Positions 9,367-9,641 are shown, numbered from the stretch's first letter. The stretch: DNA of 64,000 bases from Oscillospiraceae bacterium (GCA_015064945.1 SVRF01000006.1:4074-68073); one strand, 5' to 3'. A program made the numbers and translations. The notes: generated by a model from the sequence alone, not told the origin.

Positions 9367-9641
9367 AAACGAAGTCGTTTTACGACTTCGTTCAAGCTGA
9401 TGATAAACTTGTCATCAGCTTGGCAGAGTGCTGAGAAAGAGTGCAGACAAGACGAACCGAGGCGAGAACTGTACCGACGTACTGTGAGCCGAGGTTCGTT
9501 TTGAACGAAAAAACACAATGCAATGCAGAAAAGTCAGGGGTGCGCCCTGACTTTTCATCTTTGTGTGTAATTATATTTTTCTTTTTTCGTGGTCTGTGCC
9601 TTTGTCAGCGGTCTGAAACGAAGTCGTTTTACGACTTCGTT
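9367..9641 (+). mobile_element. MITE-like non-coding element, copy 1: 223-bp core 9393-9615 flanked by 25-26-bp direct repeats (9367/8-9392 and 9616/7-9641) that are each a complete hairpin
   Basis: AACGAAGTCGTTTTACGACTTCGTT is present on both sides. The core is ~91% identical to the reverse complement of 23455-23676. No ORF exceeds 15 codons. Confidence 0.6.

Follow-up and report, generated by a model that had tools for sequence, protein, structure and literature searches.

Direct repeats of 0–60 bp are given in ISfinder for insertion sequences (IS) of the IS1182 family. Elements of the IS200/IS605 type (PATE), of the REP/RAYT type and those derived from group II introns favour hairpins or terminators and are not known to make a target duplication. 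IS1397 and ISKpn1 (IS3 family) and the IS1111-type elements insert inside a palindrome with duplications of 0–4 bp and are not known to duplicate the whole stem-loop. Cas1 integration (CRISPR spacers, casposons) places the insert between two palindromic repeats of about 25–35 bp through staggered attacks at the repeat borders. Casposons have been covered in PMC5137440, and extragenic REP palindromes are described as the target of IS1397/ISKpn1 and IS1111-type elements, a likeness to the element studied here, in PMC1525189.

The closest described systems belong to the IS1182 family. Palindromic targets have been attributed to it by Siguier et al. (2015), as cited in PMC4923244; its elements are described as acting "with or without duplication", and as using either a sequence or "a target DNA structure" (PMC12056078), and its mechanism has been listed as "unknown" (PMC6199540). 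The member IS1272 targets terminator hairpins (PMC4923244, PMC5678879). Like the transposase-less element (MITE) that we describe below, IS1272/TnSha1 of staphylococci inserts at hairpins, mostly terminators, in both orientations and with no primary-sequence specificity (PMC4923244, PMC5678879). [quoted passage not shown]

The element behind a histidine-kinase gene

The window, that is, the whole stretch of 64,000 nucleotides analysed, contains a core of 223 bp (9393–9615) that by direct reading starts with CAAGCTGATGA and ends with CAGCGGTCTG. It is bracketed by the perfect 26-bp direct repeat AAACGAAGTCGTTTTACGACTTCGTT, at 9367–9392 and 9616–9641, detected by reading the sequence and with a repeat finder. 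The initial annotation had described a 25-bp perfect hairpin repeat (9368–9392 and 9617–9641), which is one A too short; its core coordinates, core ends, hairpin repeat and T-run position were otherwise confirmed by the sequence read, the repeat finder and a pattern search. The repeat is itself a hairpin, with an 11–12-bp stem and a 3-nt loop, and the expectation by chance was 0 in the pattern search, no such repeat appearing in 100 shuffles of the window.

The upstream gene (9655–11142) codes for a histidine kinase with HAMP, HisKA and HATPase_c domains. On the minus strand its stop codon is followed by the hairpin, the core, the identical hairpin and TTTATTTTTTT, and then by a ParB-like gene. 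The proximal hairpin copy (9616–9641) lies 14 bp from the stop codon and is parted from the T-tract; the TTTATTTTTTT run adjoins only the distal copy (9367–9392), with the minus-strand T-tract at 9359–9369. In agreement with this arrangement, the consensus terminator scan called the distal hairpin with its T-run and not the proximal flanking hairpin. The hairpin at 9367–9392 with its T-tract is the working terminator of the histidine-kinase operon. The core itself is on the plus strand, oriented against the histidine-kinase gene.

No transposase was found inside the element or anywhere in the 64-kb window. The absence of a transposase from the core had been noted before, together with ORFs of 15 codons or fewer; mechanical ORFs of 43–106 codons (with GTG, TTG or ATG starts) do overlap it. 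None of them looks conserved, and indels between copies break the reading frames, for which reason a conserved MITE peptide was rejected as a candidate; so was an internal promoter, the scan having detected no promoter-like site inside either window copy. In Rfam there was no relevant match in the region 8900–10100 at E values up to 10, only chance-level hits, and the whole window gave at the gathering threshold only two tRNAs, none of them in the element.

An alignment of 14 MITE copies was used to describe the anatomy of the core. It starts on the plus strand with a left terminal hairpin (9393–9422, positions 1–30) made of the IR-like arm CAAGCTGATGATAAAC and its inverted copy. This 14-bp stem had been seen in part as a subterminal 12-bp hairpin at 9396–9421; compensatory changes affect three of its pairs among copies, and related IS1182-family elements have the same terminal-hairpin architecture at their left end. 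Next comes an inner left inverted repeat, CAGAGTGCTGAGAAAGAGTGCAGA (9424–9447, positions 32–55, plus strand), complementary to the right end at 9593–9615 (positions 201–223). The inner repeat sequence, CAGAGTGCTGAGAAAG, matches the IS1182-family IR consensus. The initial annotation had placed a weak inverted similarity at the termini; the stronger left member is this inner repeat and not the very tip. The right inverted repeat on the plus strand is TCTGTGCCTTTGTCAGCGGTCTG; in reverse complement it reads CAGACCGCTGACAAAG, exactly the sequence with which the IS1182-family elements in L053, L056, L057 and L058, discussed below, have their left end.

Between these repeats the core is a mosaic of conserved and variable parts. 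About 95 nt (9423–9517, positions 31–125; columns 32–162 of alignment A2) show hardly any variation between copies from several MAG species. This block includes a nearly invariant internal module on the plus strand (9448–9517, positions 56–125), which contains a long imperfect hairpin GACGAACCGAGGC...GCCGAGGTTCGT, continues into GAACGAAAAAA and is absent from the transposase-encoding relatives. The adjacent 65 nt or so (positions 126–190) vary freely in sequence between copies, and within them a hairpin of about 12 bp with an A-run and a T-run is always kept, with more than eight compensatory pairs in the alignment. In copy 1 this is the terminator-like hairpin at 9528–9556, already recognized in the initial annotation, which the terminator scan also calls terminator-like; its A-run and T-run flanks make it usable in both directions. 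The last 33 nt or so (positions ~191–223), right inverted repeat included, are again conserved. Judging from the compensatory changes, the left and internal hairpins are under selection for their structure. An insert of about 1.4 kb in one copy was considered as a possible parent of the MITE and rejected: at L010:2918-4300 an unrelated IS3-family element (OrfA 119 aa, OrfB 255 aa) occupies precisely the loop of the internal hairpin, GAAAATTCGAGGA[IS]TCCTCGAATTTTC, and appears to be a second, unrelated IS choosing a hairpin loop.

Copies, target hairpins and empty sites

A BLAST search of the region against the window revealed a second full copy, 92% identical to the first, on the minus strand at 23455–23676. 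It is located directly behind pnp (23716–25806; RNase_PH, KH and S1 domains) and has the same direction as this gene, so that relative to the upstream gene its core is oriented opposite to copy 1. The flanks are the perfect 25-mer AGGAGTTGCCAAACGGCAACTCCTT, wholly unlike the repeat of copy 1. It is the pnp terminator stem-loop, adjoining the pnp stop codon at 23677–23701 and present again, identical, at 23430–23454 (both minus strand). Only the distal copy is followed by a T-run, and the hairpin at 23430–23454 with TTTTGTG is the working pnp terminator. A relic of a related element (21965–22005, minus strand), with the IR-like start GTACTGCTGAGAAAAAG and about 40 nt matching MITE positions 37–76, sits between the stop codon of the ORF at 22023–22727 and the terminator of that gene; the sequence that follows, AAAACACCCC, is similar to that of a 301-bp MITE variant at L048:4666-4966. 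A right-end-like match at 1012–1031 of the window lies inside a coding region and was discarded as chance.

A scan with one genome per species found 35 loci with the internal motif, all in MAGs of uncultured Clostridia, Eubacteriales or Acutalibacteraceae (goat cecum, sheep rectum and other bins). Many were at contig ends, as expected because the element is a repeat. One contig of the same species, L037, is a case in point for the effects of such repeats: within its core (L037:4528-4750) the SNPs of copy 1 switch to those of another copy, and the core exits into a third, different hairpin and different genes. There is therefore at least a third copy in the species, outside the window, and the MITE causes chimeric joins or real rearrangements. 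The copy count proposed as a check in the initial annotation thus comes to two in the window plus the relic, a third in the species and the 35 loci in related MAGs. The element had no BLASTN match in the collections of phages and plasmids. In metagenome_contigs, a collection evidently without these organisms, the only match to the right-end pattern (L047) was in a coding region and was taken as chance.

Sixteen full-length copies had both flanks readable, the two in the window and 14 from related gut or rumen Clostridia MAGs. The length of the element is 222–266 bp, apart from one variant of 301 bp. A hairpin foot adjoins both sides in 15 of the 16 full-length copies. Flanking direct repeats of 19–32 bp, different at every locus and each of them a hairpin, were found in 11; since the flank differs from locus to locus, it is, as the initial annotation had supposed, target DNA and not part of the element. 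With respect to the T-tract and to the upstream gene the copies can point either way, some target hairpins have no T-tract, and no common motif or conserved target tetranucleotide appears beside the MITE ends. These data show that insertion takes place at palindromes without sequence specificity and in either orientation, the palindrome being exactly duplicated and the T-run kept on one copy. The stem/U-tract junction, singled out before, is not supported as a specific target, and the element comes to lie there simply because the duplication extends over the hairpin. The other five copies have unlike hairpins on their two sides. The idea that the rest of the family would lack duplications, or would share a single hairpin, is contradicted by the 11 locus-specific repeats. 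The five copies with unlike flanks are best explained by recombination or misassembly between copies, although a second insertion mode without duplication may also be a source of unlike flanks. With its multiple copies, locus-specific flanks and lack of a transposase, the core fits the non-autonomous mobile element proposed from the window, and the mobile-element reading is right.

We have looked for filled and empty versions of the two sites. Contigs of the same species were found through an exactly identical histidine kinase, PNPase or downstream 193-aa protein. Both window insertions were present in every one of those read, with no polymorphism within the species; both copies look fixed, and recent mobility of these two copies is not supported. 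A degenerate pattern for the empty site at either locus gave 0 matches in metagenome_contigs (a JGI subset, evidently without these organisms). Sister lineages were reached through graded PNPase homologs. In L048–L050, with PNPase 98% identical, the same pnp terminator is filled by a MITE subfamily with a different internal hairpin. In L051 and L052 (PNPase 96% identical) there is a single homologous hairpin, AAGGAGTTGCGATTTTGCAGCTCCTT, with TTTGT directly after it, the plain state being ...ATTAAGGAGTTGCGATTTTGCAGCTCCTTTTTGTAT. The 94% lineage (L053) has a transposase-bearing element at this terminator and the 92% lineage (L054) has none. The plain terminator that had been predicted by removing the core and one hairpin thus exists at the orthologous pnp site, and the search for empty sites in sister strains was rewarded at the level of lineages. 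In the initial annotation, uniform insertions in all related genomes with no empty sites were to point to an ancient immobile structure; the insertions are uniform within the species, and the sister lineage has an empty pnp site, which could in principle be a deletion between direct repeats, rather than the ancestral condition. Near pnp the synteny is broken, and the empty site found belongs to copy 2. The comparison shows that one strong terminator has been used repeatedly as a target. Separately, the two hairpin copies at the pnp insertion of the 98% lineage (L048:3604-3879) are one compensatory pair apart (GGATTTGCG/CGCAAATCC vs GGAGTTGCG/CGCAACTCC), and each has therefore kept its pairing.

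Transposase-bearing relatives and hairpin duplication in the IS1182 family

Both ends of the MITE, CAAGCTGATGACAAAC and (reverse complement) CAGACCGCTGACAAAG, agree with CAGAyTGCTGACAAAs, the inverted-repeat consensus derived for IS1182-family IS from the elements of eight plasmids. This consensus has five sites in the 64-kb window, all of them in the two copies, vs 0.34 expected by chance. In L053 the sequence after the pnp hairpin is CAGACCGCTGACAAAGATAAAAGTCAGCGGTCT, which corresponds to the MITE right end as reverse complement, folded back on itself. A T-run and a promoter-like stretch lie beyond this folded end, and then an ORF that begins MLLEGKNRQRKLEMVYIEELVP and is cut by the contig end. 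The 22-aa N-terminal peptide of this ORF had no match in Pfam, and by tblastn against plasmids it led to an annotated IS1182-family transposase on a Clostridium sporogenes plasmid. The annotated gene (L055:2501-3888) shows many stops in frame 1 after a poly-A run near codon 195 and is either frameshifted or a pseudogene. Searching with a tandem-doubled L053 peptide found L056, and a C-terminal fragment of the latter (DDE_Tnp_1_6) found L057, L058 and L059.

The right end of the MITE shares 16–22 identical nucleotides with the left ends of the elements in L053, L056, L057 and L058. The last three of these start with the terminal hairpin CAGACCGCTGACAAAG...GTCAGCGGTC, and L059 starts with the diverged repeat AAGTCTGCTGACAAT followed by a separate small hairpin. 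The right ends of L056, L057 and L059, ...TTTGTCAG(T/C)A(G/A)(T/A)(C/T)T(G), are of the same kind as that of the MITE. Similarity between the MITE and these relatives is limited to the terminal 15–22 nt; the interior (positions 31–200) is dissimilar. The L059 protein, of about 487 aa with two in-frame stops, has the domains DUF772, DDE_Tnp_1 and DDE_Tnp_1_6 and scored 444 bits on NCBIfam NF033551, "IS1182 family transposase" (cutoff 270). The longer relative with the same ends that the initial annotation had proposed to look for exists, always in other MAGs or metagenomes and in no case intact: L056 and L057 are internally deleted, L053 is cut by the contig end, the right end of L058 is disrupted by another insertion and L059 has the two stops. 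An intact autonomous element was found neither in the window, the part of the source genome that was covered, nor elsewhere in the same species. Of these metagenome-assembled IS, those with both ends readable (L056, L057 and L059) have different hairpins on the two sides, which fits repeat-mediated chimeras or recombination.

The C. sporogenes plasmid element has a perfect 29-bp flanking repeat, GAGCATGTGTTTTAAATTAACACTTGCTC, that is a complete terminator hairpin, with an A-run on one side and a T-run on the other. The L059 protein gave 536 records among finished plasmids, and we took eight further copies from very different hosts. In seven of the eight, from C. botulinum, B. pseudomallei (ISBma2), B. 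subtilis, B. pumilus, R. leguminosarum, A. pseudofirmus (ISBspe1) and K. pneumoniae, the flanks are perfect repeats of 19–30 bp with a complete hairpin in each. In six of them the repeat consists of the hairpin alone, and in the 30-bp repeat of C. botulinum another 9 nt adjoin it on one side. The remaining copy, from C. estertheticum, is arranged in the same way, except for one indel in the loop. All nine copies examined thus have 19–30-bp direct repeats with a complete hairpin. When the 11 MITE and nine IS examples are put together, 96% of the repeat nucleotides fall inside the predicted hairpin, and repeat length correlates with hairpin span (r = 0.83). Whole-hairpin duplication is the normal, little-studied insertion mode of the IS1182 family. 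The premise of the initial annotation that IS and MITE duplications measure 2–15 bp is accordingly incorrect, and the novelty that it implied is not supported, given the behaviour of these nine copies and the match of the MITE ends to the family repeats.

The MITE and the ISBma2/ISBspe1-type members (DDE transposase with DUF772, DDE_Tnp_1 and DDE_Tnp_1_6) have the same IR consensus, and both duplicate the whole hairpin at palindromes or terminators (19–30 bp in the IS). In several plasmid IS the inverted repeat and its own inverted copy form a terminal hairpin, as they do at MITE positions 1–30. In contrast, the MITE has 223 bp, no transposase and an unrelated interior, together with a further IR on the inner side and a terminator-like, bidirectional hairpin of its own. 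It adds a new MITE to the known IS1182 family and does not represent a separate class.

Origin of the element and mode of insertion

We consider it very likely that the core is a transposase-less MITE of the IS1182 family, mobilised in trans by a DDE transposase of the family and inserting at palindromes with duplication of the whole hairpin. Such a transposase would recognise CAGAC(C/T)GCTGACAAA(G/C)-type inverted repeats and the left terminal hairpin, and would insert at DNA palindromes, in practice mostly the stem-loops of intrinsic terminators. The two strand-transfer points would be at the two feet of the palindrome, and repair would then copy the whole stem-loop onto both sides of the element, so that one copy of the hairpin retains the A-tract and the other the T-tract. 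The distal hairpin with its T-tract would still terminate transcription, and the bidirectional terminator-like hairpin of the element may terminate it too; insertion would therefore be nearly harmless and could become fixed, the consequence for the host being mild (a 3′ UTR about 250 nt longer).

Could the core instead represent a new class of terminator-targeting element, with an integrase of its own and outside the known IS families, its IS1182-like ends being coincidental or convergent? One could point to the lack of a transposase in the element and the window, to an interior (positions 31–200) unlike IS1182-family elements or any Rfam family and to the absence of matches in phage or plasmid collections. 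Coincidence would however have to account for five consensus sites in the window, all in the two copies, vs 0.34 expected, for exact matches of 16–22 nt to the ends of IS1182-family elements, for a shared terminal-hairpin architecture, for whole-hairpin duplication in nine out of nine plasmid-borne copies and for an IS1182-family element with these ends at the very same pnp terminator in a related MAG (L053), and we regard this origin as very improbable. Still less credible is a derivation from IS200/IS605-type (PATE), REP/RAYT-type or group II intron elements, through single-strand or retro-homing chemistry. The perfect hairpin at one end and the location at terminators are what it would have in its favour, but the MITE has locus-specific duplications of 19–32 bp, and its hairpin is at one end only and is built from an IS1182-type inverted repeat. 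A PATE or REPIN signature (no duplication, insertion 3′ of a short invariant motif, a subterminal hairpin at each end) does not describe it, there being no conserved target tetranucleotide or common flank motif, and the lack of an Rfam match speaks against an intron or another known RNA family. Cas1-mediated integration produces a similar outcome, but the MITE ends are IS1182-type repeats and the target is different at every locus; none of the loci examined yielded a Cas1 or a casposase.

A different question is whether the element is now mainly a domesticated 3′-UTR or small-RNA module, its 95-nt block and bidirectional terminator selected for a host function and its mobility only history. 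The near invariance of positions 31–125 across several MAG species next to the freely variable 126–190, the many compensatory changes that keep the shape of the internal hairpin, the presence of both window copies in all same-species contigs read and the sharing of the pnp insertion with a sister species would all agree with this. We nevertheless find it improbable, if a little less so than a new class. Copies are inserted either way round with respect to the upstream gene, the element contains no promoter-like site and has no Rfam match, and copies decay, as the relics at 21965–22005 and in L028 and the IS3-family insertion in L010 indicate. Besides, the conservation could equally reflect recent spread or extra transposase-binding repeats (IR-like, positions 32–47 and 52–66).

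Returning to the IS1182-family MITE, the length of its duplications deserves attention. In B-form DNA, sites 19–32 bp apart would be beyond one fixed transpososome geometry. In an extruded cruciform, or in a hairpin on single-stranded DNA, the two feet would be adjacent whatever the length of the arms, and because they would lie side by side at any stem length, a duplication of 19–32 bp could track the size of the hairpin. The duplication is set by the hairpin, probably via staggered strand transfer at the base of an extruded cruciform, and we infer structure-guided attack as the simplest explanation for its scaling with hairpin size. A bolder and distinctly tentative proposal is that IS1182-family transposases measure their target by DNA structure and not by a protein ruler, attacking a cruciform four-way junction or a hairpin at the replication fork, the MITE being a natural record of this, maybe with an evolved terminator-replacing design. 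If so, the target duplication would be whatever palindrome is present (here 19–32 bp). Such a design, with its own bidirectional terminator and 95-nt invariant module, would let the MITE settle harmlessly in 3′ UTRs. The low cost of these elements in 3′ UTRs would come from the one hairpin copy that keeps the T-tract.

The most interesting aspect is the under-documented rule of whole-hairpin duplication, together with the structure-guided mechanism that it implies. From Firmicutes to Proteobacteria the entire hairpin is duplicated and the length follows the hairpin, a family-wide rule that is not spelled out in the open literature searched, and this dependence on hairpin length points to structure-guided integration. 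On the practical side, where two identical terminator hairpins lie about 250 bp from each other in genomes of Oscillospirales and other Clostridia, they are to be read as insertions of IS1182-type MITEs and not as novel systems or assembly errors. The repeat also interrupts metagenome assemblies and gives rise to chimeric joins, of which L037 is an example.

Two minor observations concern the hairpins themselves. At L013:5564-5835 the flanking hairpins have identical stems and inverted loops (GTTT vs AAAC), as if the loop had flipped between the arms of the stem once the element was in place. At L007:4593-4626 a mini-palindrome of 34 bp, CAGACCGCTGACAAAGTCAAAAGGCAGCAGTCTG, consisting only of the family inverted repeat and its inverted copy, is found between two different hairpins and could be a minimal element or the product of an internal deletion.
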